Shown piece after piece: positions 778-34,908 of a stretch of DNA of 48,031 nucleotides; the first letter of the stretch is position 1, and every line of letters starts with the position of its first letter. A program made the translations under genes and the position numbers. The notes under the pieces were generated by a model. The model ran no database searches, was not told the origin of the DNA, and was given only the letters and a program-made list of their open reading frames with translations. The stretch is from Candidatus Thorarchaeota archaeon (GTDB lineage Archaea; Asgardarchaeota; Thorarchaeia; Thorarchaeales; Thorarchaeaceae), in NCBI GenBank assembly GCA_038893995.1, contig JAWAQK010000013.1:1-48031 (forward strand). The letters are read 5' to 3'.

Positions 778-778
778 A

Positions 779-1561: not shown

Positions 1562-1576
1562 GCGGAGGTAAGACAC

Positions 1577-10563: not shown

Positions 10564-10569
10564 GGCGAA

Positions 10570-15716: not shown

Positions 15717-16613
15717 CTAGTCTACAACTGCATCGACAAAGGGTTTCGTGTCAACGACGTGTTTGTGAAGTCCAACCATATTGGGATCGAGACCCATTGC
15801 CAGGCCAAGCAGTTGCGTATAGTAGATGACAGGAAGGCGATAGCGATTCTCTCCGAGTTCACGGTTCAGCTGCCCCTGTGACATCTCGAACTGAAGATGA
15901 CAGAATGAGCAGACATTGACTATAGCCATTGCACCTGCGTCGATCATGTTGTCCATCTTTTCTCTAGCTATGTCAATACTGACTGGCACATTGCTTCCCC
16001 TCACTCCTCCTCCGGCGCCGCAACACATGTACTTGTCCTTGTACTTCACACTCTTGACGCCTGTTACCTCCACCAGCTCATCCAAGAACGTGTGTCTCTG
16101 TGTCTGTTTCCACGGTCTGTTCTTGGAGGGCTTCAGGAGGTGACATCCATAATGGACAGCCACCGGAATGTCCGCAAGCTGTCGTGTCACTGACTTCTTG
16201 AGCCTCTCCACCCCAATCTCATTGATGACCTCAATCACATGCTTCGCAGTTGAACTGGCCGTGAATCTGAGATTCTGGCCCTGTAGAAGATCCTGCACCT
16301 CTTTCATCTTGATAGGGTGCGCCCTGAGATCTGCCAGTGTTTCTCTGAAAGTTCCGTAGCACCCATTGCATCCTGTGACTATGTCCAGTCCCTTGGCCTC
16401 AGCAAGAGCAAGATTCCTTGAGGCCATGACGAGCCAGGTCTTCTCGTCAAACGACCTGATGACCCCTGGCGCCGGACAACAGCTAGCTCCCTCGAGTTCC
16501 TCCAGTTCTACCCCGATTCTTGGAAGCACTTCCCGAATACTCTTCTCGACGTTCGGAAATCGATTAGGCATCACACACCCTAGAAACAGAGCGTACCTGG
16601 AACCCTTGGACAC
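15717..16613 (-). CDS. hdrB: Heterodisulfide reductase subunit B (copy 1, methanogen-like)
   Basis: GTG at 16613 after GGGAGGA. LGC...CCPAPG...CNGC; HYGCH...CCGAGGG...CSFC (two CCG domains). Confidence 0.93.
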   Translation of the reverse strand: MSKGSRYALFLGCVMPNRFPNVEKSIREVLPRIGVELEELEGASCCPAPGVIRSFDEKTWLVMASRNLALAEAKGLDIVTGCNGCYGTFRETLADLRAHPIKMKEVQDLLQGQNLRFTASSTAKHVIEVINEIGVERLKKSVTRQLADIPVAVHYGCHLLKPSKNRPWKQTQRHTFLDELVEVTGVKSVKYKDKYMCCGAGGGVRGSNVPVSIDIAREKMDNMIDAGAMAIVNVCSFCHLQFEMSQGQLNRELGENRYRLPVIYYTQLLGLAMGLDPNMVGLHKHVVDTKPFVDAVVD

Positions 16614-16617
16614 CTTT

Positions 16618-17157
16618 CTACTCCTCCCGTGCTGCGACGATGGCTTCAAACCCTGTCTTGCGCATCAGTTCCTTGACTTGTTTCAGGGCCTCATTACTCG
16701 AGTGTGTAGTTGGAGGTATTTCCATTAGACCGAGTTCTGCTCTCATCTCGCGGTTTGCATCATCAAGTGGTACAGCATGGCCCGACTGGACTAGTTTCTC
16801 CGCGGTCTTCCTATGCTGGGGAAGCATGAATCCTCTCCTCACAGCCATGTTACGCATTATTATTATTGCATCGCTGACCTTGATCTGCCGCGGGCATCTC
16901 TCAAGGCACGTCAGACATGTTGCGCACAACCAGAGATCAGGCGAACTCAAGACCTCGTCTCTGAGTCCTAACAATGCCTTTCGGATCAGTTCTCTGGTCC
17001 TAAATGCAGTGCGTCGACCACTCGGACAGACTCCCGAGCATGTACCACACTGAATACATGTCCTTAGCCTGTCCGCGCCCGCCTTGACTATGGTTTCCAC
17101 AAAGGTGGGATCAATGTTGGTCGCATCAATGGTCTCTCGACAGATACCATCAGTCAT
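16618..17157 (-). CDS. hdrC: Heterodisulfide reductase subunit C (copy 1)
   Basis: CIQCGTCSGVCPSGR and LWLCATCLTCLERCPR, GHAVP; ATG at 17157. Confidence 0.93.
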   Translation of the reverse strand: MTDGICRETIDATNIDPTFVETIVKAGADRLRTCIQCGTCSGVCPSGRRTAFRTRELIRKALLGLRDEVLSSPDLWLCATCLTCLERCPRQIKVSDAIIIMRNMAVRRGFMLPQHRKTAEKLVQSGHAVPLDDANREMRAELGLMEIPPTTHSSNEALKQVKELMRKTGFEAIVAAREE

Positions 17158-17261
17158 CGCTATTCCTCGGGAGCTGGTGTGTCTTCTGGTTTCCATGCAG
17201 GTATATAGACTTTCAGAAGTAAGCCCTCGCGAAGATACGACTTCGGAGAACTTGGCCCCGT

Positions 17262-18341
17262 CTAGCTTATGTCATAACGATCGTCCGAGAGAAGATGCAG
17301 GTTTCCTATTCTGACATTGGTCAGGCCCGCGTCCTCGGCCACTCTCTTGCATTCGTAAGCATGGTGGCGGCTAGTAGATGGCAGGTCGAGCATGTGTCTG
17401 TGAGGATAGAAACCGAGGAGCACAGTTGGTATCGTGCAGTCGCAATTGGCTATGAACGAACATAATCGTTGCACCTCGATGACTCCAACATAACCTGGGA
17501 CCAACAAGATACTTGCCACGAGAAACTCATGATCTCTGTACTTTCCTCGACTTGCGAGGTATCTGAAGTTACGTAGGACTGGCTGGTTTGATGTGCCTGT
17601 CAACGCCTGATACAGACGAGGCGAATATGCCTTGAGATCGATCTTGAGTGTGCCTCGGCTCTGGATAACAATGTCAGAAATCCTATCGAGGTACTTGCTG
17701 GATATTCTTCCATTAGTCTCATAGCAGATCGGAATGTTCCACCTTTCACGTACAAGCATCGAGGTTTCGATTGAGTGTTGAGCATTACATGACGGGTCGC
17801 CTCCAAAGAAGCATACACACGCCGTCGACTCACCAACCGCCGATGCCAGTTCCGATGGGGCCACGAGTGGTCTCCCAGCTCTGACCATGGAGAAGTGGCT
17901 TTCATTCTGGCAGTAGAGACAGTCTGAGTTACATGATCCGTAGAATACGGCAAGGTTTCTCCCTCCGGGTCTCTGACGAGTACTCTCTCGCTTCGAGACG
18001 GCACACACTTCTCCCGCTGTACAGTTTGTCGGAAGCGGATCGAAGTATGAATACACAATGGCCTTCCCCGGGTACCTCTCCACGATTCTCTGTCCCACAG
18101 CTGAACGAAGTCCACAGAATCCCTGTTCTCCGTCTGACAATCTGCAGTGGTTGGCACACTCTCCACATACAGTGGTTCCGCTGTCAGCAACTCTTCCTAC
18201 CAGTCCCTGTTCGCACCTGTACTGCACATGTCGGGAGAGAACAGCGTCAAGAAGCTCCTCTCTCTCGCTCAGACATAGACCACAGTATCCAAACGATGCG
18301 GATGCAACTCTCCTCTGTTCGAGGTGATTTGGGCACAACAC
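17262..18341 (-). CDS. Radical SAM protein, PFL-activase-like archaeal family (DPLPTNC motif)
   Basis: CNSDCLYC (CxxxCxxC), GGDP, ETNG, DLKA; extra N-terminal Cys motifs (CGLC, CGECANHC, GFC). Confidence 0.88.
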   Translation of the reverse strand: MLCPNHLEQRRVASASFGYCGLCLSEREELLDAVLSRHVQYRCEQGLVGRVADSGTTVCGECANHCRLSDGEQGFCGLRSAVGQRIVERYPGKAIVYSYFDPLPTNCTAGEVCAVSKRESTRQRPGGRNLAVFYGSCNSDCLYCQNESHFSMVRAGRPLVAPSELASAVGESTACVCFFGGDPSCNAQHSIETSMLVRERWNIPICYETNGRISSKYLDRISDIVIQSRGTLKIDLKAYSPRLYQALTGTSNQPVLRNFRYLASRGKYRDHEFLVASILLVPGYVGVIEVQRLCSFIANCDCTIPTVLLGFYPHRHMLDLPSTSRHHAYECKRVAEDAGLTNVRIGNLHLLSDDRYDIS

Positions 18342-18393
18342 ATCGAGTACTCTCGAGTTCGCTCTAGCTCCAACCGAGGTCCTTTGACAACGG

Positions 18394-18400
18394 ATTTAAA
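18394..18400. promoter_or_regulatory. TATA box between the divergent radical SAM and hdrC genes
   Basis: Symmetric TTTAAA within an intergenic region of about 90 bp. Confidence 0.5.
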
Positions 18401-18436
18401 CTTGAAAATCTTACCCCTCAATCGTCGGTGCTCACA

Positions 18437-18979
18437 TTGACTAGCGTTGATGAAGTACCCCCCATTGAGATAGACCAGTTTGACACATCATTTGTCGAGA
18501 TGATAAAGCGTACCGGTGGTCCCAACATACAGAGCTGTTTTCAGTGCGGTACTTGTAGCGGCAGCTGTCCCGCGGGGGCCCGGACAAACTACCTCGTACG
18601 GCTGATCATCAGAAAGGCACTACTTGGTCTTAAACAGGAGTGCATTTCGGCTCCTGAGCTGTGGTATTGCACCACCTGCTACACATGCACTGACAGGTGC
18701 CCACAGGATGTCCGACCGACAGACGTGATCAAGGCCATTCGAAACATCGCGGTTGCGGAGGGTTACATGCTTGAGCCCCACCAAGCGGTTGCTCTCAAGG
18801 TCCTGGAAGCCGGTCACGCGGTCCCACTTGACAAGGAGTCCTGGTCCCAGTTAAGAGAAAGAGTCGGCCTTGCACCAAAGCCACCTAATGCCAGCTCACA
18901 TCCCGAGGCGGTTGAGGAGATTGCCAGGCTTGCTCAGAAGACCGGTTTTGACAAGCTCGTGAAGGAGAGGAAAAAGTAA
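18437..18979 (+). CDS. hdrC: Heterodisulfide reductase subunit C (copy 2); alternative GTG 18428
   Basis: CFQCGTCSGSCP, LWYCTTCYTCTDRCP, GHAVP. Confidence 0.93.
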   Translation: MTSVDEVPPIEIDQFDTSFVEMIKRTGGPNIQSCFQCGTCSGSCPAGARTNYLVRLIIRKALLGLKQECISAPELWYCTTCYTCTDRCPQDVRPTDVIKAIRNIAVAEGYMLEPHQAVALKVLEAGHAVPLDKESWSQLRERVGLAPKPPNASSHPEAVEEIARLAQKTGFDKLVKERKK

Positions 18980-18981
18980 AC

Positions 18982-19917
18982 ATGCCCAAGAAACCTGCAT
19001 TCTACCATTTCCTAGGGTGTATCATACCACACCGATATCCGAGCATTGAGAAGGCGACGAAACTAGTCTTCGAGGATCTGGGTATGGACCTACTCGATAT
19101 GGAGGGTGCCTCCTGTTGTCCTGCACCAGGTGTTTTTGGGTCCTTTGATAGGGTCACGTGGGCGACGATCGCGGCTCGGAACCTCACAATTGCAGAAGCT
19201 GGTGGACACGACATAACCACAGGTTGCAACGGATGTTTCGCCAGTCTCTGGGACACAAACCATGAGTTGAAGCATGACGAGGAACTCAGAGCCAAGGTCA
19301 ACGAGAATCTGAGGGAGATTGGCCGCGAATACAGGGGTACTATCGAGGTCACCCACTATGTCGACGCATTGTACAGAGTGGCTGGCATAGAGAAGATCCG
19401 GTCTCGCGTCAGACGGCCCCTCAAGGGTGTCAGGATGGCTCTCCACCCCGGATGTCACTGGATGCGCCCTGCTGCTGTGAAGCAGAAGGACAACAGTGAG
19501 CGTCCTCACATATTGAGAGAGATATGCGAGGCTACGGGAGCGACGTATGTCCCATACAGAGACGAGCTGATCTGTTGTGGTGCTGGTGGGGCCGTCAGGA
19601 CCGCCGACCTCAAGGTGTCTCTAGACTTTACGATGCAGAAGTTTGAGAGTCTCATTGAGGCAGGAGGGGCGGATGTCATAGTCACACCGTGTCCGTTCTG
19701 CGAGCTTCAGCTTGACATGGGCCAAGTAGAGATCGAGAAAAACTTCGGAAAGGTCTACCATTTCGATGTGTTGCATGTGTCCGAGTGGCTTGCTCTCGCC
19801 TTTGGACACGAACCGGATGAGTTCGGGCTCGCGACTCATCTTCAGTACCAACAGAGAAAGATCAGTCCTGCCTTTCTTGCCAAAGTGATCTCAGAAACTG
19901 CTAAGGGTACTGCATGA
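18982..19917 (+). CDS. hdrB: Heterodisulfide reductase subunit B (copy 2, methanogen-like)
   Basis: LGC...CCPAPG...CNGC; HPGCH...CCGAGG...CPFC. Confidence 0.93.
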   Translation: MPKKPAFYHFLGCIIPHRYPSIEKATKLVFEDLGMDLLDMEGASCCPAPGVFGSFDRVTWATIAARNLTIAEAGGHDITTGCNGCFASLWDTNHELKHDEELRAKVNENLREIGREYRGTIEVTHYVDALYRVAGIEKIRSRVRRPLKGVRMALHPGCHWMRPAAVKQKDNSERPHILREICEATGATYVPYRDELICCGAGGAVRTADLKVSLDFTMQKFESLIEAGGADVIVTPCPFCELQLDMGQVEIEKNFGKVYHFDVLHVSEWLALAFGHEPDEFGLATHLQYQQRKISPAFLAKVISETAKGTA

Positions 19918-20157
19918 TCACCAACGACCCCCAGACAGAGAATGCCACCCCGGTTGACTCCTGCGGTGTTGCTACGTGAATCAAATGCAGTGGACTCCTG
20001 ACTTGGTTGATCGAGCCCTATGCCGATATGTCTCCTGCATTCCTGTCCTCTGACTGGCGTCTCTCTGGTGAGTACAGTCTAGGACTGGGCGCTAGAACAT
20101 AACGGTTTTATCATCCGTTTGGTGACGACCCCTCATCCTAATTGGAGCAAGAGCAGA

Positions 20158-23100
20158 ATGACAGGGGCCGAGACTAAGCCGGTTGTCGTTGTTGGAGCTG
20201 GCATCGCCGGTATCAGAGCAGCCTTGGATCTTGCTGAGATGGGCGTCAAGGTGTATCTTGTTGAGAGATCCCCGTCAATCGGAGGACATATGGCTCAGTT
20301 GGACAAGACCTTCCCGACCCTCGACTGTTCGATGTGTATCATGGGCCCTTGGATGGTCGACTGCTCCCGTCATCCAAACATCGAGATACTAAGCCTGTCT
20401 GAGGTCGAGGAGATCGAGGGTCAACCAGGAAACTTTACGGTCCGCATCAAGAGGCACACACGTCGAGTAGACCCGACCAAGTGCACAGGTTGCGGTGAAT
20501 GCCAAAGAGTCTGCCCGATCGAGGTGCCAAACGAGTACGATCTGGGCCTCAAGATGAGAAAGGCCGTGTACATTCCATTTCCCCAGGCGGTTCCTAACGT
20601 TGCAACAGTTGATATTGAGAACTGTATTCGCTGCATGACCTGCGTCAACACCTGTAAGGCCGAGGCCATTGACTTTGACATTGCTGACGAACAGCTGAAG
20701 TTGAGCGCTGGTGCAGTCATCCTTGCAACCGGATACAGTTTGCTCGCTGCTTCTGAGGTTCCCGAATATGGCTATGGTCGTTATCCAAATGTCGTCACAA
20801 GTCTAGAATACGAGAGAATGATCTGTGCGAGCGGTCCAACAGGAGGTGTCCTCATACGTCCCTCCGATGGCACCGAGCCCCACCGAATTGCATTCATTCA
20901 GTGCGTGGGGAGTAGAGATCAGAACCATTGTGCGTACTGTTCAAGAATATGTTGCACCTATGCCACGAAGGAGGCAATCATCACAAAGGAACACAGTCCT
21001 GACGTCGAGATCGATGTGCTATACAATGACCTGCGTGCCTTTGGCAAGGGCTTTGAGGAGTTCCTGAACCGGGGAGAGACTGAGTATGGCATACGCTATG
21101 TGAAGGGTCTTCCAAGCGAGATACTCGAGGACCCTGCTACGAGAGACCTGATAGTGCGCCACAGCGAATCGGGCAGTCATACAGTCGTCACTGACCGATA
21201 CGACCTGGTTGTCCTCTGTCCGGCCATGGTTCCGAATGACAACTCTGAGTTCTTCAGACGAGTCGGAATCATCACCGATCAATATGGTTTTGTTCCAGGT
21301 CATGGGGGCCATGTCGAGAGCGTCAGGACGAACATACCTGGAATATACATGTGTGGTACGATCAATCACCCCAAGGACATTCCAGACTCTGTTTCTCAGG
21401 CAAGTGCTGCAGCTGCTCTTGCGGCCCTCGACCTTGGGATCAGTAGACGTGAGAGGTCGGAGGAGATCACTGAGGAAGAGTTTCGTTCAGCAGCCGGGGA
21501 ACCAAGAATTGGTGTATTCGTGTGCTCCTGCGGTGTGAACATAGCTGGCACAGTGGACGTGTCTGAGGTCACCAGGTATGCGACGACATTGCCGAATGTG
21601 GTTCATGCTCAGAACCTGCTCTACTCCTGTTCCTCCGACGCTCAGACTGTGATAAAGGATGCAATAAAGGAACACAAGCTAAACCGCGTCATTGTTGCAT
21701 CGTGCACCCCACGAACTCATGAGCCACTCTTTAGGGCCACTGTGCAAGAGGCCGGACTCAACAAGTACCTATTCGAGATGGCGAACATAAGGGAGCATTG
21801 TTCGTGGGTCCACCAGAACGCCAAAGATGAGGCCACAGTCAAGGCGATGGACCTGGTACGTATGGCTGTGGCGCGGTCTGCTCTTCTTGAGCCACAGGTT
21901 GAGGCAATCACGCAGATTGAGCCTGCTGCCCTCGTTATTGGAGCTGGAGTTGCTGGGATGTCTGCCGCTCTGACGATCGCACGAGCTGGGTTCAAGGTCT
22001 ATCTTGTCGAACAGCAGGACCGAGTCGGTGGTCTACTGAACAGACTGCAGACGATAGATTTCGATTTCAGGGACGCCGCCAGTGTGGTCCAAGAACATGA
22101 GAAACTGGTTCGTGAGAACCCCAATATCGAGATACTGCTCAGTTCACAGGTCGTGGCGGCTAGCGGTTCAATAGGTGATTTCAACGTCACCATTACAGGC
22201 CCCAGTGGCGAGCGCAAGGTCAAGGTTGGCGTTGTGGTGATTGCAACCGGCGCCCAAGTGCTAGAGGAATCCGGGCTGTATGGTCTACATCAGTTGCCAG
22301 AAGTAATGACGGAGCTGCAGTTCAGTGAACGACTTGCACGCGGAGAAGGCATTCGGGACGGGGACGTATTCGCCGTCATTCACTGTGCAGGTTCAAGGGA
22401 GGAGCAGTCTCTCAAGGGGGCACGGACATGGTGCTCGTCGATCTGCTGTACGGTCGCTCTTGAACACACACTTGAACTCCTACAAAAGTTTCCAAACTGC
22501 AAGGTGTATCATCTGTATCGGGATCTGAGGGTGGCATACGATGTCGAAGACCGATACCGTGAGGCCCGCAAGAAGGGTGTGGTCTTCATAAGATTTGATG
22601 AGAAGAGTCCCCCGGCTGTACTCAAGGGAACGAAGAAGACGTTGAGGGTAGAGGTGGTTGATCAGTCGCTTGGAGCCAAGCTGGGTATCAACGTGGATCA
22701 CGTCGTCCTTGCAACAGCCATGGTGCCCAATGATGGGAACCGCGAACTCTCAGAGTTGTTCAAGGTACCTCTGAACATCTCGGGTTTCTTCATGGAGGCA
22801 CACCCCAAACTTCGACCTGTAGACTTCCAGACTGATGGTGTATATGTGGCCGGCACCGCCGTTGCTCCGAAATCGATCAATGAGGCGATATCCCAGGGTA
22901 GGGGTGCTGCTGCAAGAGCACTGATACCCCTCATAAGTGGCGTACGGAGGGCCGAAGCTGTGGTGTCGGTCGTCGACCCAGAAGTCTGTGTAGGTTGCGG
23001 AACCTGCGAGACAAACTGTGTCTACAACGCGATAGAGGTGGTCTCGGGCGAGGGCGGACATGACTATGCAGTGTCCAACCCTGTCTTGTGTCAGGGTTGT

Positions 23101-23607
23101 GGTAAGTGTGCTGCGGGCTGTCCCTCAGGTGCCATAACAATGAAACACTTCACTGACGACCAAATCCTTGCACAGATACGTGCTGCCATCGCCGATGCTC
23201 CCCGTTCATCGCCGCGCATCGTTGCGATCCTATGCAACTGGTGCAGCTATGCAGGCGCAGACAACGCTGGAGTCTCTCGGTTTCAACAGCCTACAAATGT
23301 CAGAGACATTCGCGTGATGTGCACTGGGCGAGTCAGTGTGGCACACATGCTTGAGGCGTTCAGGATGGGTGCAGACATGGTGTGGATCTCTGGCTGTCAC
23401 TTCGGTGACTGTCACTACGTTGATGGCAACGTGACGTTTGAGCGCCGTTTCGCGATAGCCCGGAAACTCTTGGAGAAGGCAGGACTTGAGCCTGAGCGAC
23501 TTCAATTTACACAGGTCAGTGCGAGTGAGGGATCGATTTGGGCCGAGAAGGTCAGGGACATGGTAAAGCTTGCTGAGCGGCTTGGTCCAAGCCCTCTCAG
23601 GAGGTGA
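20158..23607 (+). CDS. hdrA: Large HdrA with two FAD modules, fused to a C-terminal MvhD [2Fe-2S] domain
   Basis: Two GAGxAG Rossmann motifs, DKTFPTLDCSMC, inserted ferredoxin, CSRICC, internal VFVCSCG...SCTP...NIREHCSW domain, HPKLRPV, C-terminal ferredoxin, then MvhD motifs CNWCSYAGAD, RVMCTGR, GCHFGDCHY. Confidence 0.95.
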   Translation: MTGAETKPVVVVGAGIAGIRAALDLAEMGVKVYLVERSPSIGGHMAQLDKTFPTLDCSMCIMGPWMVDCSRHPNIEILSLSEVEEIEGQPGNFTVRIKRHTRRVDPTKCTGCGECQRVCPIEVPNEYDLGLKMRKAVYIPFPQAVPNVATVDIENCIRCMTCVNTCKAEAIDFDIADEQLKLSAGAVILATGYSLLAASEVPEYGYGRYPNVVTSLEYERMICASGPTGGVLIRPSDGTEPHRIAFIQCVGSRDQNHCAYCSRICCTYATKEAIITKEHSPDVEIDVLYNDLRAFGKGFEEFLNRGETEYGIRYVKGLPSEILEDPATRDLIVRHSESGSHTVVTDRYDLVVLCPAMVPNDNSEFFRRVGIITDQYGFVPGHGGHVESVRTNIPGIYMCGTINHPKDIPDSVSQASAAAALAALDLGISRRERSEEITEEEFRSAAGEPRIGVFVCSCGVNIAGTVDVSEVTRYATTLPNVVHAQNLLYSCSSDAQTVIKDAIKEHKLNRVIVASCTPRTHEPLFRATVQEAGLNKYLFEMANIREHCSWVHQNAKDEATVKAMDLVRMAVARSALLEPQVEAITQIEPAALVIGAGVAGMSAALTIARAGFKVYLVEQQDRVGGLLNRLQTIDFDFRDAASVVQEHEKLVRENPNIEILLSSQVVAASGSIGDFNVTITGPSGERKVKVGVVVIATGAQVLEESGLYGLHQLPEVMTELQFSERLARGEGIRDGDVFAVIHCAGSREEQSLKGARTWCSSICCTVALEHTLELLQKFPNCKVYHLYRDLRVAYDVEDRYREARKKGVVFIRFDEKSPPAVLKGTKKTLRVEVVDQSLGAKLGINVDHVVLATAMVPNDGNRELSELFKVPLNISGFFMEAHPKLRPVDFQTDGVYVAGTAVAPKSINEAISQGRGAAARALIPLISGVRRAEAVVSVVDPEVCVGCGTCETNCVYNAIEVVSGEGGHDYAVSNPVLCQGCGKCAAGCPSGAITMKHFTDDQILAQIRAAIADAPRSSPRIVAILCNWCSYAGADNAGVSRFQQPTNVRDIRVMCTGRVSVAHMLEAFRMGADMVWISGCHFGDCHYVDGNVTFERRFAIARKLLEKAGLEPERLQFTQVSASEGSIWAEKVRDMVKLAERLGPSPLRR

Positions 23608-23612
23608 ACCAT

Positions 23613-24131: not shown

Positions 24132-24132
24132 G

Positions 24133-25008: not shown

Positions 25009-25036
25009 GTACGCCTGCCATCTGTGGATTCCCGCC

Positions 25037-26029: not shown

Positions 26030-26032
26030 CCT

Positions 26033-27037: not shown

Positions 27038-27042
27038 TCTGA

Positions 27043-28311
27043 TCACTCCCTGAGCCGAGGTGTGAGTATCTCGTTGACTCCCTCACCAATCAGCGCAAAT
27101 CCTAGCGCGAGTATGACTATCATGATCCCCGGAAATGTTATGATCCACCATGCTCCGACCACGAGAAGGTCCTTTGAGCCGGCTGTGAGGTCCCATCCCC
27201 AGTCTGCCACATCAATGCCCATTCCGAGTCCAATGAATGTGAGTCCCGCGGCGGTGAGTATTGCATCGGCGAAGTTCATCGACATTACCACTACCGAGGA
27301 GGGCAGAACATTCGGCAGTATGTATCTCAACAAGACATCCCGGTTTCGGGCGCCCAGGACGACAGCGGCCTCTACGTAAGGTAGCTCCTTGACTGTCAAC
27401 ACTTGGCTTCTTATCACTCTGAAATATGATGGAATATACACCACTGATATGGCAAGGGCCATATTCACAACGCCACGACCGAGTATTGCCGCAACTGCAA
27501 TTGCCAGTACAAGCCCCGGGAGGGCGAAGATGCTGTCCATGACTAATGCAACTGTCCTATCCACCAGACCTCCTCTGTAGGAAGCCGCCAGTCCCAATGG
27601 CACTCCAACGGCGAAGCAGATCGCCACTGAGAGCACTGCCACCTGAAGCATGGTGGCTCCCCCTGCAATAGTCCTGCTGAGAAGATCCTGACCGAGTGAG
27701 GTAGTACCCATCGGGAACGAGAGGCTTGGTGGCGACCTGACTGGGCCTACGTTCAGTGTGAATGGATTGTAGGGAACAATGTAAGTTGAGATGGCCGTCA
27801 TGTAGACTATGGACAGTGTGATCGCCAACCCTGAGAGAGTGAGATAACCGGGCATTCCTCTGACACTGAGTCTGGGATATCCTTCGTAGAAAACTATGAG
27901 GATTGCTCCGAGTGCGGTCGAACCAACCATGGTTGCGACTGATAGGTCGACAGCTTCAGTAGGTCTGAGCCCCCATGAAAGGCCGAAGAGGGCAGCGTAG
28001 ATCGCTGTCGTCATGCCAATCTGGGCAATGTACCCCTCTCGCTTGCTCAGTCTTCTTGTCATCAGATTGCGTCTGACTGGTTCCAAGAGTGCAATGCCAA
28101 ACGCACCGATGAACGTGATTATCACAACAGGTACCCCAATGCCACTGTGTGACCTCATTGCAACCAGGAACAGCCCTACCATCAGGAGTACTACTACTGC
28201 TGCAATCGTGACAAAGACAGCCCTCCATTGTCTTGACCTTTGACCGATTTCTAGTCTGGTCCTCAGAAATCTGATAATTGGATAGAATATGCCTCCAATG
28301 TTGTTCTCCAT
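27043..28311 (-). CDS. dppC: Peptide ABC permease (DppC/OppC) with an N-terminal membrane extension
   Basis: PMGTTSLGQDLLSR, EAA loop (YVEAAVVLGA), ILPN, LTFIGLG, WG, WW..FPG. Confidence 0.9.
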   Translation of the reverse strand: MENNIGGIFYPIIRFLRTRLEIGQRSRQWRAVFVTIAAVVVLLMVGLFLVAMRSHSGIGVPVVIITFIGAFGIALLEPVRRNLMTRRLSKREGYIAQIGMTTAIYAALFGLSWGLRPTEAVDLSVATMVGSTALGAILIVFYEGYPRLSVRGMPGYLTLSGLAITLSIVYMTAISTYIVPYNPFTLNVGPVRSPPSLSFPMGTTSLGQDLLSRTIAGGATMLQVAVLSVAICFAVGVPLGLAASYRGGLVDRTVALVMDSIFALPGLVLAIAVAAILGRGVVNMALAISVVYIPSYFRVIRSQVLTVKELPYVEAAVVLGARNRDVLLRYILPNVLPSSVVVMSMNFADAILTAAGLTFIGLGMGIDVADWGWDLTAGSKDLLVVGAWWIITFPGIMIVILALGFALIGEGVNEILTPRLRE

Positions 28312-28326
28312 CTCTCGACGCCCACC

Positions 28327-29352
28327 TCACAGTCTTATTCTTGGATCGAGTGCAGCATAGAGTATGTCAACGACCAGAGTCACGAGTGTGACAAGCAGTC
28401 CGAAGAATACGACAGTGCCCTGGATGGCGGTGTAGTCTCGATGACCTATGCGTTCCACGAGATACGTTCCGATCCCGTTCCAGCTGAACGTGGTCTCAGT
28501 GAGTACAGCTCCAGCTAACAGGGCAGCGAACTGCAGACCAATCATCGTCAATATGGGCAGAAATGCGTTCTTGAGTGCATAGACGTATGTGACTCTCGAG
28601 TCCGGAAGTCCCCTGGCCTGAGCTGCAACAACAAAGTCTGCCCTCAGTGTTTCAAGCATGTTTGTCCTAGTGAGTCTGACGAATATTCCGCATAGTATTA
28701 GCCCCAGTGTAATGGATGGAAGAAGAAGGTGTCTGAGTGCGATAAAGAAAGCGGGGAAATTGAGTTGAATGAGGCTATCTATCGTGAGTAGCCCCGTGAT
28801 TCTCTGAGGCATGAGGTCACCGTATCTCATGTCAAAGCGTCTGCCAGTGGGCAGGATGTTCAGCCAGAATGCGAATATGTACTGAAATAGCATCCCAAGG
28901 AAGAAGACGGGTATGGCGTAGGTGACTATCCCAAACAGCCTTATGGCGGCATCCTTCTTCGTCCCATAGTTCTTTGCAGAGCTGACTCCGAGGGCGATGC
29001 CGAAGAGTGACGCAAACAGCATGGAAAACAGTGCAAGCTCGAGTGTTGCGGGAAAGCGTTCTACTAGGTGTTGTGTGACGGGTGCATAGTCTTGCATGGA
29101 CAAACCCAGGTTGCCTGAGAAAATACCAACTAGATAGTCTACAAACTGTTCTGGCAGTGACTTGTCCATACCGAGCCGGTGGCGCATCTCTGCTATTGCT
29201 TCAGGAGTGGCCCCCTTCTCAAAGTGCAGAAGAACGGGGTCCCCCGGAAGCATTCTGAGGAGAATGAACACGAGTGTTAACAAGAACAGCACCATGGGAA
29301 TCATGAGGGCGATTCTGCTTGCTATGTATGACTTTAGGCTCAAATTGACCAC
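28327..29352 (-). CDS. dppB: Peptide ABC permease (DppB/OppB)
   Basis: LPGDP, GNLGLS, FPATLEL, AAQARGL, LKNA, TETTFSWNGIG, RDY, LDPRIR. Confidence 0.93.
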   Translation of the reverse strand: MVNLSLKSYIASRIALMIPMVLFLLTLVFILLRMLPGDPVLLHFEKGATPEAIAEMRHRLGMDKSLPEQFVDYLVGIFSGNLGLSMQDYAPVTQHLVERFPATLELALFSMLFASLFGIALGVSSAKNYGTKKDAAIRLFGIVTYAIPVFFLGMLFQYIFAFWLNILPTGRRFDMRYGDLMPQRITGLLTIDSLIQLNFPAFFIALRHLLLPSITLGLILCGIFVRLTRTNMLETLRADFVVAAQARGLPDSRVTYVYALKNAFLPILTMIGLQFAALLAGAVLTETTFSWNGIGTYLVERIGHRDYTAIQGTVVFFGLLVTLVTLVVDILYAALDPRIRL

Positions 29353-29370
29353 CCACGCCTCTCGAGGTAG

Positions 29371-29430
29371 AATGGTGTGCCGTCGGCACCCATTTCGCCC
29401 TTAAATCAAGCACGGTACGATTGGGTGCCG
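29371..29430. repeat. Overlapping inverted repeats between dppA and dppB
   Basis: AATGGTGTGCC-GTC-GGCACCCATT (29371-29394) and CGGCACCCA (29384-29392) / TGGGTGCCG (29422-29430). Confidence 0.6.
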
Positions 29431-29447
29431 GCAGCACTATTCAGTCC

Positions 29448-31109
29448 TCATGGTCCCGTCTGTGCATAGGGTCCAAAGTAGAGTAGCCAGTGTCGCCAGT
29501 TTGCTGTTATGTCCAGCACGACACCGTGGACGTAGGGTGATGTGACAGCAACCTGGTTACTCTGCCATAGTGGGATCACAGAGCACTCATCTGCCTGTAG
29601 TAGCTGCAGAAGACGGTATGCATTGGCACGGCCCGTTTCTGTCGTGGCACTCCTTCCTTCGATCCACAAGTTATACTGAGCCGTCGCGTTGGCGGGTCCA
29701 TCCTTGTCGTATCCTAAGTGCAGCCACGATGCGAAAGGCAGGAATGCATAGTTGTCAGGATCTACAAAGTCAGGGTACCAGCCGTATATGAAGACCTGCA
29801 TGCTCCCAGCGGATCGGTAACCCGCATATGTACTCCAGTCGACCCCATGAAGATTGACTGTGATAACACCGCTGCCCTCGAGATCGCTCTTGTAGACGGC
29901 AGCCTGTTCGGCACTCTGCGGATAGTGTCCGCTAGTCTCATACCAGAGGTCTAACTCCAACTTGTTTGTCTCGCTGTATCCATACTTGGCGAGTATGCTC
30001 CGAGTGTAGCTGTAGTTCGCGCTTCCGTAGATCCTGAAGACGTCTTCATGGTATGCCATTCCGGCGGGTATCATACTCCAGAGTGGAGTGAAGCTGCCCA
30101 GGAAGACAGTTTCTGTCACGTGTGTTCTGTTGATCGCAGCCGTTATGGCCCTCCTGACCTCTGTGATATTGAGTGGGTAGAAGTTCTGGTTGAAGCACAT
30201 GTACTGTATCTGCGCTCCAATGCCCTCCCAGACTCTCACATTCGGATTGGTCTTGAATGACTGAATCTGGGCGGCTGTCAGCTGTCTGAACGCAATGTCA
30301 ATCTCCCCGGCTGCCATGGCCGATGCAAGAGCGCTTGAGGATGTATACATGTATATCACTATCTCATCCATCTTTGGTATGCCACTGTTGATGTTCCAGT
30401 AGTATGGATTCTTGACCAGTTTCATTCTCTCGTCGGTGCCACCTGTCCTCACCCACTCAGCCAACACATATGGACCGAGACCACATGGATTGCTGGCACT
30501 TGCGTTCCCCGGGACGTAGTTTACCAGGGCATTCTTTGGTGCACGCATGGGGTCCACCATGTACGAGGCCGCACAGGAGAGTAGCTGCAGGAATGGAGCG
30601 AAGGGTATCTTGAGATAGAATCTGACCACATAGTCAGAAACGATGGTCACGTTCTCTATTATCGAGTCGTACTCCATGTTGAGTTGTGGTCCGTCTGGTT
30701 CCCACAGTCCGTCCCCAGTGAGATTGCAGTTTCGATCAAATGTATACTTGACCACTGAGGCGTCAAACGGTCTGTGTCCATCGAAGGTGACTCCCTGTCT
30801 CAGATTGAATGTCCATACCTTTCCCGTTTCATCGACCGACCAGCTCTCTGCTAGGGCAGGTTCAATGTCATCGGCCCCAGCCTCTGAACCAGGTTTGATC
30901 TCCACCAGACCTGCGCTGACCGCGGTAATGATCTCCCATGAGAAGTAGTCATAGGCCCGTGCAGGGTCCAGATTCACCTCTACTGAGTCTGTCGTGCCCA
31001 TCACCATGGTCCTTCGGGTCGGGTACTGCGGGACTAATAGGAAGTACCCCGCCCCGATGACTACGACAATCAGCACGATTGCAATGATGGCCTTTGTTCT
31101 ATTGACCAA
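29448..31109 (-). CDS. dppA: Peptide ABC substrate-binding protein (family 5) with N-terminal membrane anchor
   Basis: TTG at 31109 after GGAGG; N-terminal hydrophobic helix; LDPA, PALAESW, FNLRQGVTF, GLGPY, VRRAI, GWYPDFVDPD. Confidence 0.92.
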   Translation of the reverse strand: MVNRTKAIIAIVLIVVVIGAGYFLLVPQYPTRRTMVMGTTDSVEVNLDPARAYDYFSWEIITAVSAGLVEIKPGSEAGADDIEPALAESWSVDETGKVWTFNLRQGVTFDGHRPFDASVVKYTFDRNCNLTGDGLWEPDGPQLNMEYDSIIENVTIVSDYVVRFYLKIPFAPFLQLLSCAASYMVDPMRAPKNALVNYVPGNASASNPCGLGPYVLAEWVRTGGTDERMKLVKNPYYWNINSGIPKMDEIVIYMYTSSSALASAMAAGEIDIAFRQLTAAQIQSFKTNPNVRVWEGIGAQIQYMCFNQNFYPLNITEVRRAITAAINRTHVTETVFLGSFTPLWSMIPAGMAYHEDVFRIYGSANYSYTRSILAKYGYSETNKLELDLWYETSGHYPQSAEQAAVYKSDLEGSGVITVNLHGVDWSTYAGYRSAGSMQVFIYGWYPDFVDPDNYAFLPFASWLHLGYDKDGPANATAQYNLWIEGRSATTETGRANAYRLLQLLQADECSVIPLWQSNQVAVTSPYVHGVVLDITANWRHWLLYFGPYAQTGP

Positions 31110-31139
31110 GCGATTATTTCCTCCATCACGCCGAATTTG

Positions 31140-31160
31140 TCTGTCACAAGCTGTGACAGA
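31140..31160. promoter_or_regulatory. Perfect 9-bp inverted repeat (putative operator) between the TATA box and dppA
   Basis: TCTGTCACA-AGC-TGTGACAGA; TATA-like TTAAATA on the minus strand at about 31185-31191. Confidence 0.5.
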
Positions 31161-31236
31161 GGTATCACACACTAGCAACACGGCTATTTAAGGCATATAG
31201 CAGATGATGAACTCCCCACCCATGATTATCCCCTGT

Positions 31237-31800
31237 TCAGTCCGTTTCCTGGGGATAAAGTAGCTCTCCCAGCCTTTTCATCGCATCGCGAACACAGGTA
31301 TCCTTTCCGGTGACCCTCAGGTACCGGTCTCCCTCGAAAGATATATTGACACGGCATTCCTCAGCAATCTCCGAAATGATTTCAGGCGGGCATTCTCTTT
31401 GCAGTCTTATTCTGAAGAACCCGATTCCCTTCTCCCGGGGAAGATCCGAGATACTTACAGTTGGTTCGTCTGGCTCTGGTTTCACTCTCTCGTAGATTGC
31501 GTCCTCGAACCTCTGTTCCCAGGATTCTCTGGTCTCTCTACCACCAAGTTCCTCGGACCATGTCACGAATGAGTCTCTTAGTGCGAGTATCTGAGCCTCT
31601 GTTTCTGCTCTGAGGTCCAGATCCGAATCAGACATCGTTTCGGAACCTCTCTCCACAGAGAGAAGATACTCTAACGCAACCCTACTGTTTCTGAGGTCTG
31701 CATATATCTGGTCCGGAATGAATCCTCCAAGTTGTCTGACCTCACCTATCATCTCGTTCAAGACTGACCAGCCATACAGCAGCCCCTTCAGTGTGACCAT
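31237..31800 (-). CDS. DUF2096-like protein
   Basis: The pattern W.VL.E...E....G..IP..I..DLR and the C-terminal RI.L.......I.EIAE...V.I.FE.D..L...G....V..A.K.L resemble DUF2096 as recalled; 6 bp downstream of hdrA copy 2. Confidence 0.6.
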   Translation of the reverse strand: MVTLKGLLYGWSVLNEMIGEVRQLGGFIPDQIYADLRNSRVALEYLLSVERGSETMSDSDLDLRAETEAQILALRDSFVTWSEELGGRETRESWEQRFEDAIYERVKPEPDEPTVSISDLPREKGIGFFRIRLQRECPPEIISEIAEECRVNISFEGDRYLRVTGKDTCVRDAMKRLGELLYPQETD

Positions 31801-31806
31801 CTGCTC

Positions 31807-34800
31807 CTACTCCCTGAGCATCTCCTCGATCTCGGCCATATAGCTCTTCTCGCGCCACCAACGTAGGTCGCGAGCTCCAGTCGGGCAGATCGCCGCACAC
31901 GCGCCGCATCCCTTGCATCGCATATCGTCGGTCACACTCTTCTTGACGCCGGGGGCGACCTCTACCATCGATATGGCATCATATGGGCATATCTCCGTGG
32001 ATCGACACAAGTCGCAGCCAATACAGAGTTCCTGGTCGACTTCTGCAGTTCCAAGTTCGATCTGTACAGTCCCAAGATTCAGTGGTACGGCCGCCTCGCT
32101 TGCGGCACCTCTTGCCTGGTTTATTGAGTCTGCCACATTCTTGGCGTAGGTGACTCCCAGGAAAACGCCGGGCACTGTAGTTTCAACTGGACGGTACTTC
32201 ATGTGCATCTCACGAAGGAATCCATCCTGTCCCCTGCTTATTCCAAGCGCCTTCACAAGACCGTGCACGTCGTGTGGAGCTTCGAGGCCTAGGGCCAGTA
32301 CTACCATGTCTGACCTTATCCTGATAGTTCTCTGGGCATGGGTATCATATACTGTCACAATGGCCTCATTACCGTCCGGTGCTCTCTCCACAGTCACTGG
32401 ACGTTCACGTTCCCAGCGTAGGTAGGTGACGCCCCTCTGGCGATTCTCACGCCACATCTCCTCCATGCCCTTCTCGTACGGGCGTATGTGTTCCTTGAAG
32501 GCTGAGAAGACCTTGATCCCGGGAAACATCTCTATCAGTTCATGCTGCAGAGAGATGACCGCAGAGCAACAGACTCTCGAACAGTATCTGTTTCCCTCGC
32601 CCGGGTTCTGCCTTGATCCAACGCAGTGGATAAAAACAGGATTCTTAGGTGGCTTCTTGATCTCCCCTCTTTTGAGTCTTCTCTCGAGCTCAAGAGTACT
32701 TATGACTGCCGGAATCTCTTCCCATCCATACTCTCCCTTTCTGGGCTCGTATACGTCGTTGCCAACTGCAACTACCATCGTGCCTATCCTGACTGTCTCT
32801 TCCTTGCCTGACTTTTGGTTGCGTACAGTGACGTCATAGTTTCCATAGGAGCCATCGAGCTTGGTTACTTCGGACTCTAGCAGGACCCTAATTCTCTTCT
32901 CCTCTCTGACCCGGGAGATAAGGTCTTCAACTATCGTATCGGCATATTCCATCCTTGGGAACAGCCGATATAGATCATTCAGCCTTCCACCAAGCCTATC
33001 GGTCTTCTCAACGAGGATGACATCGAATCCCTTCTTTGCAATGTCGAGGGCTGCAGTCATGCCCGACACACCGCCTCCGACCACCATCGAAACCTTCGTG
33101 ACTTCGACAGTCTTCACCGGAATCTCCTCATTGTTGATGGCCTTTGCTACCGCACTACGTATCATGTCCTGGGCCTTCTCTTGCCTCTCTTCGAAGGGCG
33201 CATTTGCATTGACTAGGGCAAGCTGCTCCCGGAGGCCAGCAGGACCAACAAGATAGTACCTTGACAGTCCCGCCCGTTCCAGTGCCTTTCTGAAAGTTTC
33301 CTGATGTTGGAGGGGCGAACACGAGCCTACGACGACACGGTTGAGCTTGTGTTCCTTTATGGCATCAACTATGAGCTGCTGACCGGGATCACTACACATG
33401 AAGATGTAGTCTGTACTGTAGACGACCCCAGGTATGTTCCTTGCCCAGGCAGCTAGGCCTGGTGAATCTATCACGTTCCCTATTATCCCGCCGCAGTGGC
33501 AAATGAAGACTCCAACTCGGGGTTCGTCTGTGACCTCTGCTGGCTCCACAGGTTCCTTCTCGGTAATAACTGGCAATGGCAGAATTGACTGAGCTGCCAT
33601 GGCGGCACCCTTGCCCTCATTGACAGTGTCGGTACCGTCCCTGGGTCCATGTGCGCAGCCCGCCACAAATATACCCGGTCTTGTGGTCTCTAGCGCCGCA
33701 GAGTTTGGATGTCTCTCCCGAATGTATCCCATCTCGTCCAGTTCTATTCCAAGTATCTTTGCAAGTTCCTCTGTTCCTTTGCTGGGTCTGAAGCTGGAGT
33801 TCAGTACTATCATCGATATCTTGTCTATCTCTATTATTTTTCCAGCCGAGGTGTCCTCCATCTTTACGCGCAGGTCGTGTGTTTCGGGATCCTCGGATAC
33901 CTCCGACACCCTGCCTCGTATGAACTTGATTCCATGATTACGTTCGCTGTCCCACAAGAACTCCTCGAGAGCCTTTCCAGCCGTGCGCATATCCATGTAA
34001 GTGTAGATTATCTCGCAGTGCTCCTCCGGATAGTGCATCCTTGTCACTTGAGCCAGTTTTAGACCGAATGAACAGCACACCCTGTTACAGTGGCTAGAGT
34101 AGCCGCTGATGCTCTCGCGGACATCTCTGCTTCCGACACAGTTTATGAAGAGTATCTTCTCTGGTTCTCTACCATCTGATGGCCTCACCATATGGGCGTC
34201 GGTGGGTCCAGTGGGATGCGTCTGACGATCGTACTCGAGTGATGTGAGTACATTTGGAAAGATACCATACCCGTATTCGCCGTAGTCAACTGGTTTGTAC
34301 TCATCGAACCCAGTCGCGACTATTATCGCGCCTACATTTAGCTCAATTAGTCGGTCCTGATCGTTGTAGTTGATGCAGTCTTGGGGACAGACTCCTGCAC
34401 ATGTACCACAGCCGATACAAGCGTCACGGTCTATGGTGGCGACCAGCGGAACTTGCTGTGGGAAATACATGAATATGGCCTTGCGTAGTGACTGACCGAA
34501 GTCGTACTCATTAGGCACTTCGACCGGACATGCCCGAACGCAGGACCTACAACCTGTACATCTGGACTCGTCAACGTACCTGGCCCGCTTTCGTACGGTG
34601 ACCTTGAAGTTACCCGCCGTGCCGGAAACCTTCTCGACCTGTGAGAGTGCATACACGGTTATGTTTGGATGCTTTCCAACTAACGAAGTCAGGGGTGTCA
34701 TGACGCATGCGGAACACTCTAGCGCGGGAAATACCTTGTATATCGACACATACTTCCCGCCAATGTTCACACTCCTCTCGATTAGGTGAACCTTGTATCC

Positions 34801-34908
34801 TCCGTTGGCCAGGGCCAGTGATGCGTTTATCCCTGCCATCCCGGATCCTATCACTAGAACATCGGTCGGCCTTGTCTTCTTGGATTTAGCTGGACCCTTT
34901 CGCGACAT
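31807..34908 (-). CDS. hdrA: Large HdrA with two FAD modules (copy 2), no MvhD fusion
   Basis: GSGMAG and GGGVSG Rossmann motifs, KVFPALECSAC, ferredoxin insert, CNRVCC and CSRVCC, VFICHCG...MCS..GQ...SCSP, KYRPVET, C-terminal ferredoxin. Confidence 0.93.
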   Translation of the reverse strand: MSRKGPAKSKKTRPTDVLVIGSGMAGINASLALANGGYKVHLIERSVNIGGKYVSIYKVFPALECSACVMTPLTSLVGKHPNITVYALSQVEKVSGTAGNFKVTVRKRARYVDESRCTGCRSCVRACPVEVPNEYDFGQSLRKAIFMYFPQQVPLVATIDRDACIGCGTCAGVCPQDCINYNDQDRLIELNVGAIIVATGFDEYKPVDYGEYGYGIFPNVLTSLEYDRQTHPTGPTDAHMVRPSDGREPEKILFINCVGSRDVRESISGYSSHCNRVCCSFGLKLAQVTRMHYPEEHCEIIYTYMDMRTAGKALEEFLWDSERNHGIKFIRGRVSEVSEDPETHDLRVKMEDTSAGKIIEIDKISMIVLNSSFRPSKGTEELAKILGIELDEMGYIRERHPNSAALETTRPGIFVAGCAHGPRDGTDTVNEGKGAAMAAQSILPLPVITEKEPVEPAEVTDEPRVGVFICHCGGIIGNVIDSPGLAAWARNIPGVVYSTDYIFMCSDPGQQLIVDAIKEHKLNRVVVGSCSPLQHQETFRKALERAGLSRYYLVGPAGLREQLALVNANAPFEERQEKAQDMIRSAVAKAINNEEIPVKTVEVTKVSMVVGGGVSGMTAALDIAKKGFDVILVEKTDRLGGRLNDLYRLFPRMEYADTIVEDLISRVREEKRIRVLLESEVTKLDGSYGNYDVTVRNQKSGKEETVRIGTMVVAVGNDVYEPRKGEYGWEEIPAVISTLELERRLKRGEIKKPPKNPVFIHCVGSRQNPGEGNRYCSRVCCSAVISLQHELIEMFPGIKVFSAFKEHIRPYEKGMEEMWRENRQRGVTYLRWERERPVTVERAPDGNEAIVTVYDTHAQRTIRIRSDMVVLALGLEAPHDVHGLVKALGISRGQDGFLREMHMKYRPVETTVPGVFLGVTYAKNVADSINQARGAASEAAVPLNLGTVQIELGTAEVDQELCIGCDLCRSTEICPYDAISMVEVAPGVKKSVTDDMRCKGCGACAAICPTGARDLRWWREKSYMAEIEEMLRE

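Follow-up and report, generated by a model that had tools for sequence, protein, structure and literature searches.

Large HdrA proteins that join two HdrA subunits in a single chain, and the heterodimer logic that applies to them, have already been published for heterodisulfide reductase (Hdr) systems. Type II HdrA was named in a study that derived it from the fusion of the HdrA classes A6 and A12 (PMC12054007). Chadwick et al. 2022 state that Cys197 of one HdrA ligates the cluster in the N-terminal domain of its partner, and that the losses in tandem or fused HdrAs are complementary, so that tandem HdrAs are expected to work as heterodimers and a fused HdrA to be its own partner (PMC9012536). 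The sole biochemically isolated complex with such an HdrA that was found in the literature is MetFV-HdrABC-MvhD of Moorella thermoacetica, which is said to have a double HdrA in fused form that shows this complementary loss (PMC9012536). Double-HdrA fusions, often with MvhD, were reported for Thorarchaeota (16 of 18 assemblies) and Lokiarchaeota (9 of 10), and a single assembly had as many as six copies (PMC11237513). In this report, a stretch of 48,031 nucleotides from a Thorarchaeota archaeon is analyzed (the window; contig JAWAQK010000013.1 of assembly GCA_038893995.1, referred to as C13). The genome is a 2.33-Mb metagenome-assembled genome of 82 contigs that is 91% complete. The window carries three hdrC-hdrB pairs and two HdrA proteins of more than 1000 residues, and this region is likely to be the core of a gene island of Thorarchaeota that encodes soluble Hdr-type complexes for flavin-based electron bifurcation or confurcation.

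Asgard archaea have many Hdr genes and no methane metabolism, and the substrate of these enzymes matters for models of energy metabolism and syntrophy. A sequence-only reading of the window had described the three HdrBC pairs and the two large HdrAs as a mix-and-match system. Gene calls from a listing of open reading frames (ORFs) combined with Pfam and NCBIfam family scans recover all eight Hdr genes at the positions in Table 1. The observation is correct, but the kind of enzyme is already described and occurs throughout the lineage, and the locus represents it in well-preserved form without being a new system.

Two halves of the giant HdrA proteins

Both giant HdrA proteins are asymmetric fusions of two different HdrA classes and not simple duplications. 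In the HdrA-MvhD fusion, residues 19-445 comprise a flavin domain (TrxR, binding flavin adenine dinucleotide, FAD) with an inserted 2x[4Fe-4S] ferredoxin, and residues 461-593 comprise the N-terminal [4Fe-4S] cluster domain. These are followed by a second, more divergent TrxR domain that has no ferredoxin insert (residues 599-945), the C-terminal 2x[4Fe-4S] ferredoxin (residues 951-1026), and MvhD with its [2Fe-2S] cluster (residues 1031-1161). The N-half is a short HdrA without an N-terminal domain or C-terminal ferredoxin, and the C-half is a long HdrA without the inserted ferredoxin. The FlpD/MvhD family (PF02662) matches residues 1034-1156 with 152 bits, the solved MvhD 7bkb_F scores 147 bits, and five cysteines of this region are conserved in 98% of the Thorarchaeota orthologues.

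The two-half architecture is supported by several comparisons. HdrA-MvhD aligns with the solved HdrA 5odc_A in three pieces (19-445, 461-593, and 883-1026), the last of which corresponds to the end of the FAD domain together with the ferredoxin at the C terminus. The second HdrA likewise aligns with 9sfi_A in three pieces and has the same architecture without MvhD. Each giant HdrA contains two Rossmann/GxGxxG modules, and each half aligns with solved HdrA by sequence and, for HdrA-MvhD, also by fold; an internal alignment with the other HdrAs of the genome agrees. An AlphaFold2 (AF2) model of the whole 1162-residue chain has a mean predicted local distance difference test (pLDDT) value of 82 and a predicted template modelling (pTM) score of 0.84, and only the linker 445-457 is disordered. 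Residues 460-1026 of the model match residues 2-652 of 5odc_A (Z 34.6, 560 residues, 2.5 Å) and residues 18-442 match residues 150-575 of 8rvu_a (Z 33.1, 1.4 Å). The same two halves are encoded by adjacent overlapping genes elsewhere in the genome, on contig C55 (420 and 718 residues) and on contig C47 (437 and 585 residues, plus mvhD).

The residues that are tied to cluster ligation and bifurcation are unevenly divided between the halves (numbering of M. thermolithotrophicus HdrA). In all 45 orthologues of HdrA-MvhD and all 30 of the second HdrA, the N-half has Cys194, Cys197, and Lys409, and also Glu356, which is replaced by Asp in the second HdrA. The two cysteines correspond to C70/C73 in HdrA-MvhD (45/45) and to C65/C68 in the second HdrA (30/30), and both are lost from the C-half in all 45 and all 30 orthologues. 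The C-half has Glu or Asp (HdrA-MvhD) or Thr, Ala, or Ser (second HdrA) at the position of Lys409 in all Thorarchaeota orthologues, and its N-terminal domain retains the cysteines 469, 471, 504, and 529. The cysteines for seven [4Fe-4S] clusters and for the MvhD [2Fe-2S] cluster are all conserved.

Cys197 is found in one half and the N-terminal cluster domain in the other, which is the complementarity expected of type II HdrA. The type II trait of keeping Lys409 and Glu356 in both flavin sites is absent here; it is not a strict criterion, and the membership stands. Both giants are type II HdrA, an already published kind. What this analysis adds for Thorarchaeota is that the bifurcation-tied residues are kept in the N-half only. 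A single bifurcating flavin per giant HdrA is likelier in Thorarchaeota because only this half keeps them.

Two types of HdrBC and a conserved island

HdrB1, HdrB2, and HdrB3 each contain two CCG domains (PF02754) and all ten cluster cysteines, and HdrC1, HdrC2, and HdrC3 each contain two CxxCxxCxxxCP motifs. The pairs differ in the residues that surround these ligands. The motifs quoted by the sequence-only reading are exact: HdrB1 and HdrB2 have CCPAPG and CCGAGG, and HdrB3 has CCGTVV and CCGSP, which is invariant in 42 of 43 orthologues. HdrB1 and HdrB2 score 360 and 384 bits against the TIGR03288 equivalog model (cut-off 345 bits), and HdrC1 and HdrC2 score 207 and 190 bits against TIGR03290 (cut-off 160 bits). 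HdrB3 (257 bits) and HdrC3 (99.5 bits) fall below, and because of its score HdrB3 is best filed as HdrB-like only. Against the solved methanogen HdrB the scores are 302, 348, and 236 bits for HdrB1, HdrB2, and HdrB3, and HdrB2 is ~55% identical to 8rvv_B by a hand count on the printed alignment.

A maximum-likelihood tree also parts the two HdrBC types that had been proposed. HdrB1, HdrB2, and HdrB3 form separate Thorarchaeota-wide clades with support of 100/100, and the canonical types cluster with Thermoplasmata sequences (99/97), with HdrB3 and the HdrBs of C55 and C47 outside. The tree is midpoint-rooted with no named methanogen anchor and is complemented by the scores against the solved methanogen HdrB. 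The mutual identity of the HdrB paralogues is only 31-47%. Given the separate lineage-wide clades, the three HdrBC pairs are ancient paralogues and not recent redundant copies. A full methyl-coenzyme M reductase (MCR) pathway served by recent, redundant reductases of CoM-S-S-CoB, the disulfide of coenzyme M (CoM) and coenzyme B (CoB), had been named as the outcome that would speak against the earlier idea, and it is not what the tree indicates.

The genome encodes 14 proteins with paired CCG domains, six of which are true HdrBs with a neighboring HdrC. The methanogen-type pairs are three in number: that of a canonical hdrCBA operon on C48, whose HdrB also has CCPAPG/CCGAGG and whose HdrA is canonical, and HdrB1/HdrC1 and HdrB2/HdrC2, neither of which is translationally coupled to an hdrA. 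Like HdrB3, the HdrBs encoded on C47 and C55 have different residues after each CC, and all three variant HdrBC pairs (window, C47, and C55) adjoin a split or fused HdrA of the A6+A12 type with MvhD. In Desulfobacterales, too, the HdrBs that neighbor type II HdrA are non-canonical. At least two HdrAs have no adjoining HdrBC, namely the second type II copy in the window and a canonical HdrA on C15. The C47 locus (C47:8116-16062) encodes a 918-residue HdrA with a GltD/NfnB-like NAD(P)H insert ("type III"), a 133-residue ORF, hdrC, and hdrB, together with the split A6-like (437 residues) and A12-like (585 residues) HdrA and a separate mvhD. At C55:1-8270, hdrC-hdrB and the split HdrA (420 residues, and 718 residues with MvhD) lie with an acyl-CoA dehydrogenase and a 764-residue iron-sulfur protein that has no family match save a ferredoxin motif.

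The arrangement of the genes in the window is compact. As the sequence-only reading held, HdrBC copy 3 is coupled to HdrA-MvhD: the hdrA-mvhD stop TGA (23605-23607) overlaps the GTG start of hdrC3, which has an in-frame ATG at 23613, and the hdrC3 stop (24129-24131) is followed by the in-frame ATG of hdrB3 at 24133, so that the three genes overlap or abut. The hdrC2-hdrB2 pair shares its strand with hdrA-mvhD, which follows only ~200-240 bp downstream, and hdrC1-hdrB1 is co-oriented with, and close behind, a radical SAM (S-adenosylmethionine) gene. TATA-like boxes were judged by eye to lie 5' of hdrC2 and of hdrA.

This organization recurs in ~45 Thorarchaeota loci, including the closed chromosome CP070761.1, with the island proteins 50-83% identical. 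The order is hdrB1-hdrC1-radical SAM (-), hdrC2-hdrB2 (+), a gap, hdrA-mvhD-hdrC3-hdrB3 (+), and DUF2096-hdrA (-), and the gap between hdrB2 and hdrA-mvhD varies from 0.2 to 8 kb. Type II HdrA was matched over its full length in all 26 genomes sampled from the same family and in 140 of the 151 that make up the phylum sample. On the hdrB1 side, orthologues of KorA (77-83% identity) were found in 12 Thorarchaeota loci and of KorB in 5, wherever the flank reaches, and those of the small helix-turn-helix (HTH) protein (62-69% identity) in 18. An orthologue of the Opp cluster was found in 0 of 49 Thorarchaeota loci. DUF2096-hdrA directly follows hdrB3 in most relatives, so the peptide ABC transporter is a local insertion that breaks an otherwise contiguous island. 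Within the 10-kb flanks of the related loci, conservation does not extend to the Opp cluster, the Hgd-like genes, the CoA ligase, or the hydrogenase. The Hdr set of Thorarchaeota is a lineage-wide, fixed, and anciently partitioned island and not an ad hoc mixture.

The gap in relatives contains genes for a SAM methyltransferase, a CdhD-like protein, MarR, and TldD/PmbA, which give no consistent clue. In two of these loci (L029:8022-9664 and L055:4037-5658) the SAM methyltransferase and a protein corresponding to the C-terminal part of CdhD lie between hdrB2 and hdrA-mvhD; this methyltransferase and partial CdhD, found in the gaps of several relatives, are absent from the window. In one relative (L153, G103:C92), hdrC2-hdrB2 and not hdrC3-hdrB3 is convergent beside hdrA-DUF2096.

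The DUF2096 gene starts 6 nt downstream of the second hdrA, in the place that MvhD takes in the other HdrA gene, and at least 23 of 25 loci of the same family have it immediately after the second HdrA. The protein has two conserved cysteines, and in a word-based search its homologues were only of the Thorarchaeota type among the matches listed. A role as a general Hdr accessory was considered and rejected, as DUF2096 is not beside HdrA in five examined loci of other Asgard families.

The coordinates of the island and its neighbors are collected in Table 1. At the start of the window (1-2866) is a [NiFe] hydrogenase of the group 3b type, sulfhydrogenase-like and NAD(P)-linked, with its gamma, delta, and alpha subunits; the beta subunit is probably lost beyond the contig end. 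Two subunits of the HgdAB/BcrBC family and an activase ATPase (8157-11358) lie beside an AMP-forming CoA ligase (6137-7885).

Table 1. Genes of the Hdr island and adjoining genes, with positions in the window
Feature	Position	Strand	Remarks
korB	12022-12897	-	two-subunit 2-oxoacid:ferredoxin oxidoreductase; Pfam TPP_enzyme_C, POR_N, PFOR_II (korA and korB together)
korA	13265-14539	-	2-oxoacid:ferredoxin oxidoreductase subunit; Pfam TPP_enzyme_C, POR_N, PFOR_II (korA and korB together)
small HTH protein	14908-15390	+	weak HTH_20 match; between kor and hdrB1
hdrB1	15717-16649	-	methanogen-type; two CCG domains; exactly 10 Cys
hdrC1	16618-17196	-	two [4Fe-4S] motifs
PflA-like radical SAM	17262-18341	-	Pfam Radical_SAM; first gene of radical SAM-hdrC1-hdrB1 unit
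hdrC2	18428-18979	+	TIGR03290 190 bits
hdrB2	18982-19917	+	methanogen-type; two CCG domains
type II HdrA fused to MvhD	20119-23607	+	1162 residues; likely start ATG 20158
hdrC3	23604-24131	+	variant type; coupled to hdrA-mvhD
hdrB3	24115-25008	+	variant type; two CCG domains; likely start ATG 24133
Opp-type peptide ABC transporter F, D, C, B, A	25037-31181	-	Pfam ABC_tran, oligo_HPY, SBP_bac_5
DUF2096 protein	31237-31800	-	four-helix bundle and KH-like domain; Pfam PF09869, PF23100
second type II HdrA	31807-34908	-	1033 residues; no MvhD

Proposed working of the island and competing readings

In the proposed working of the bifurcating or confurcating complexes, the two halves of the giant HdrA would fold onto each other as a built-in heterodimer (after Chadwick et al. 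2022), and Cys197 of the N-half would complete the cluster in the N-terminal domain of the C-half. There would be one bifurcating FAD, with the inserted ferredoxin domain as the low-potential exit. The N-terminal domain, the C-terminal ferredoxin, and MvhD would form the input arm, which may serve a mid-potential donor or acceptor. HdrC3 and HdrB3 would take the high-potential electrons to two non-cubane clusters for the reduction of a disulfide, and the inserted ferredoxin domain would pass electrons to ferredoxin or, in reverse, accept them from ferredoxin reduced by KorAB. The second HdrA, which has DUF2096 in the place of MvhD, and the unlinked canonical HdrA on C15 are the likely partners of HdrC1B1 and HdrC2B2. 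The complexes would tie ferredoxin from the adjacent KorAB to a mid-potential carrier and to a thiol/disulfide couple, the disulfide of which could plausibly be generated by the products of a fumAB-tfrAB operon at another place in the genome. The main alternatives for this disulfide are a CoM/CoB-like thiol pair that is regenerated against fumarate reduction and a protein-bound one (lipoyl carrier).

The [NiFe] hydrogenases found here and in the closed relative are a group 3b-type enzyme (in the window; best models HydA/ShyA) and, as large subunits, group 4-type enzymes; a group 3c Mvh hydrogenase was found in neither. The MvhD arm therefore probably docks something else, and Mvh hydrogenase is an unlikely donor because none was found. 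The genome has three copies of CofE and an FrhB-like gene, and reduced coenzyme F420 (F420H2; CofE, FrhB-like) and NAD(P)H (the HdrA with the GltD insert on C47) are candidates for the mid-potential carrier. At C46:19980-20150, the contig end truncates a lone mvhD-like gene that shares 65% identity with the fused MvhD across 57 residues. A partner of the MetFV type, as in the Moorella model, was rejected since no MetF (PF02219) was found in the genome; no metFV genes were seen in the island among the scanned ORFs of at least 120 residues.

Several points weigh against this working of the island. The pairing of the orphan HdrBCs with HdrAs is a matching of numbers (two pairs, two HdrAs), which is bookkeeping and not evidence, and many relatives have 3-8 kb of unrelated genes between hdrC2B2 and hdrA. 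The AF2 model is cofactor-free, and the contact of Cys197 with the cluster and the dimer-like packing rest on inference. The genome is only 91% complete and the lone mvhD stands at the very end of C46, beyond which hydrogenase genes could lie in an assembly gap. Lysine is kept in both halves of 17 of 30 distant homologues (Thermoplasmata, Desulfobacterales), and Lys409 and Glu356 are reported to be retained by 75% of the type II proteins, for which two bifurcating flavins were proposed (PMC12054007). A single bifurcating flavin may be restricted to Thorarchaeota.

The best of the other explanations, although we regard it as unlikely, is that the island is a methanogenesis remnant in which HdrB1, HdrB2, and the C48 hdrCBA products reduce true CoM-S-S-CoB formed by thiol:fumarate reductase, with CoM and CoB scavenged or made by an unrecognised route. 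The B1/C1 and B2/C2 scores above the cut-offs of the CoB-CoM heterodisulfide reductase equivalogs fit this explanation, as do the likeness of HdrB2 to the solved HdrB and their identical CCPAPG/CCGAGG loops. TfrB of a fumA-fumB-tfrA-tfrB operon (C2:94445-99378) scores 524 bits against a cut-off of 385 in the model for CoM/CoB thiol:fumarate reductase. At C1:73283-78130, cofE, mtrH, mtrA, a second mtrH, and DUF2114 lie together as a methyltransferase remnant without membrane Mtr subunits. Thorarchaeota have been described as retaining methanogenesis remnants, and a cycle of Hdr and thiol:fumarate reductase was already proposed for other Asgard archaea (PMC9723677). However, mcrA, ComA, ComD (TIGR03845), and the marker-16 enzyme were not found in the 91% complete genome, mcrA and ComA were not found in the closed Thorarchaeota chromosome either, and equivalog scores mirror sequence likeness and not substrate. 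The host is accordingly a non-methanogen, as had been supposed. DsrC was not found in the genome, which removes it as a candidate substrate, and these absences agree with the earlier suggestion of possibly unknown disulfides. Judging from this gene inventory, HdrB1 and HdrB2 probably work like HdrB in a host that does not appear to make and use CoM-S-S-CoB.

A protein-bound disulfide is less probable still. It could be the dithiolane of a lipoyl carrier, as in the sHdr-LbpA system of sulfur oxidisers, or another protein disulfide. Three GcvH-type genes are present in the genome, and only one of them has gcvT; of the other two, one is on C7, ~2.6 kb from a pair of genes for a GlcD-like and a CCG protein, and one on C30 is fused to a DGC domain. 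Against this, genes for a lipoyl carrier, a lipoate ligase, or a sulfur relay are absent from the island and its vicinity in the window and in the related loci examined, and DsrC was not found. The window HdrAs also keep their ferredoxin domains; the HdrA of sHdr is not known to have them.

The GcvH-DGC fusion (C30:9226-10095) is beside a transporter of the SBF family and another DGC protein. On C7 (34028-46657), an uninterrupted reading frame of 4209 codons lies a few kb from the GcvH-like gene and the GlcD-like/CCG-protein pair. On C21 (3357-6708), a 646-residue fusion of a D-lactate/glycolate-type FAD oxidase and a NuoB-like (Oxidored_q6) domain is divergent from an HdrD-like CCG protein and is beside group 4 hydrogenase/complex I-like genes.

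The original combinatorial idea, that any HdrA takes any HdrBC to give flexible reductases for several disulfides in peptide fermentation, now carries about the same low probability as a protein-bound disulfide. The unlinked parts speak for it: with two HdrBC pairs that have no coupled hdrA and at least two HdrAs that have no adjacent HdrBC, some assembly from unlinked genes must occur. Free exchange is another matter, since the same genes stand in the same order throughout the lineage, each of the ancient HdrB paralogues is conserved on its own, and a variant HdrBC always adjoins a split or fused HdrA. Part of the case for peptide fermentation is the peptide transporter, an insertion that no related locus shares; the only neighbors that are conserved are korAB and the HTH regulator.

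The unit that contains hdrC1B1 starts with the radical SAM gene, which keeps this position in most related loci. The enzyme has a CX3CX2C motif at residues 137-144 and nine conserved N-terminal cysteines, it scores 74 bits against TIGR04337, which is below the cut-off, and PflA is its sole relative in the PDB by sequence. Homologues with at least 50% identity were all of the Thorarchaeota type among the 120 matches listed. The enzyme may be the activase of a glycyl radical enzyme, because one is present on another contig. A bolder idea, which we hold to be very doubtful and slightly less probable than the two preceding ones, is that radical SAM-hdrC1-hdrB1 is an HdrA-independent module in which the radical SAM enzyme makes, repairs, or acts on a low-molecular-weight thiol pair used by HdrB1, HdrB2, and thiol:fumarate reductase in place of CoM/CoB. 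If true, the prokaryotes most closely related to eukaryotes would have a thiol cofactor system that is new. A predicted complex of HdrB1, HdrC1, and the radical SAM enzyme (separate alignments) scored 0.00 against a mark of 0.32, which has no weight either way.

An artefact of chimeric assembly, which had been named as a possible refutation, or of decaying duplicate genes can be dismissed: no point was found in its support, the Hdr reading frames are intact with every cofactor cysteine conserved, and the level GC content (0.51-0.55 across the window) and the recurrence of the same island in ~45 independent assemblies, one of them a closed chromosome, exclude chance and chimeric assembly.

The question of what these complexes do is narrowed and not answered by this analysis: the island is fixed, there is probably one bifurcating flavin per giant HdrA, and an Mvh donor is unlikely. 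The methanogen-like HdrB type and the TfrAB operon mean that a CoM/CoB-like thiol pair merits a direct chemical search, and the island provides a defined gene set for heterologous expression.

Comparison with known Hdr systems

QmoAB of sulfate reducers consists of a short HdrA-like protein and a longer HdrA-like protein with an MvhD-like domain, and in this it would resemble the split genes of C55 and C47. The loci here differ from the Qmo system in lacking the membrane subunit QmoC and any AprAB or Dsr context. The lipoate-binding protein and sulfur-relay genes that accompany sHdr-LbpA were not found in the window or in the related loci.

HdrABC-MvhAGD of Methanothermococcus thermolithotrophicus (5ODC; also 7BKB, 8RVU, and 9SFI) shares with the window proteins all HdrA domains, the cluster ligands, and both CCG motifs of the non-cubane clusters, and the HdrA halves superpose with Z 33-35. 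Unlike the homodimer in 5ODC, the protein here would be a fused heterodimer with a single inserted ferredoxin, N-terminal domain, C-terminal ferredoxin, and MvhD, and the host yielded no gene for an MvhAG hydrogenase, for Mcr, or for the biosynthesis of CoM. HdrA2B2C2 of Methanosarcina acetivorans is also similar in that an MvhD-fused HdrA occurs without an Mvh hydrogenase, and its F420H2- and ferredoxin-dependence is a precedent for an F420H2 donor (PMC5296606). The NCBIfam HdrA2 model is the best-scoring one for the fusion in the window (1160 bits against a cut-off of 1100). The M. acetivorans HdrA2 has one flavin domain where there are two here, and its substrate is CoM-S-S-CoB.

The closest match is type II HdrA A3/A4 (PMC12054007; HdrA3/HdrA4 in PMC9012536). 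The type II proteins described from methane- and alkane-metabolising archaea differ in their host, which here is an Asgard archaeon that does not metabolise methane, and in their FdhB or molybdopterin partner genes, which are not near the window HdrAs. Unlike the type II majority, the Thorarchaeota C-half has lost the Lys409 equivalent, and the order of the halves, with the Cys197 half first and the N-domain half second, is opposite to that given in the text of PMC9012536 for HdrA3/4. The likenesses are those of the overall design: one chain of more than 1000 residues with two TrxR-type flavin domains, one A6-like and one A12-like, in which Cys197 and the N-terminal cluster domain are distributed in a complementary manner and to which MvhD is sometimes fused.

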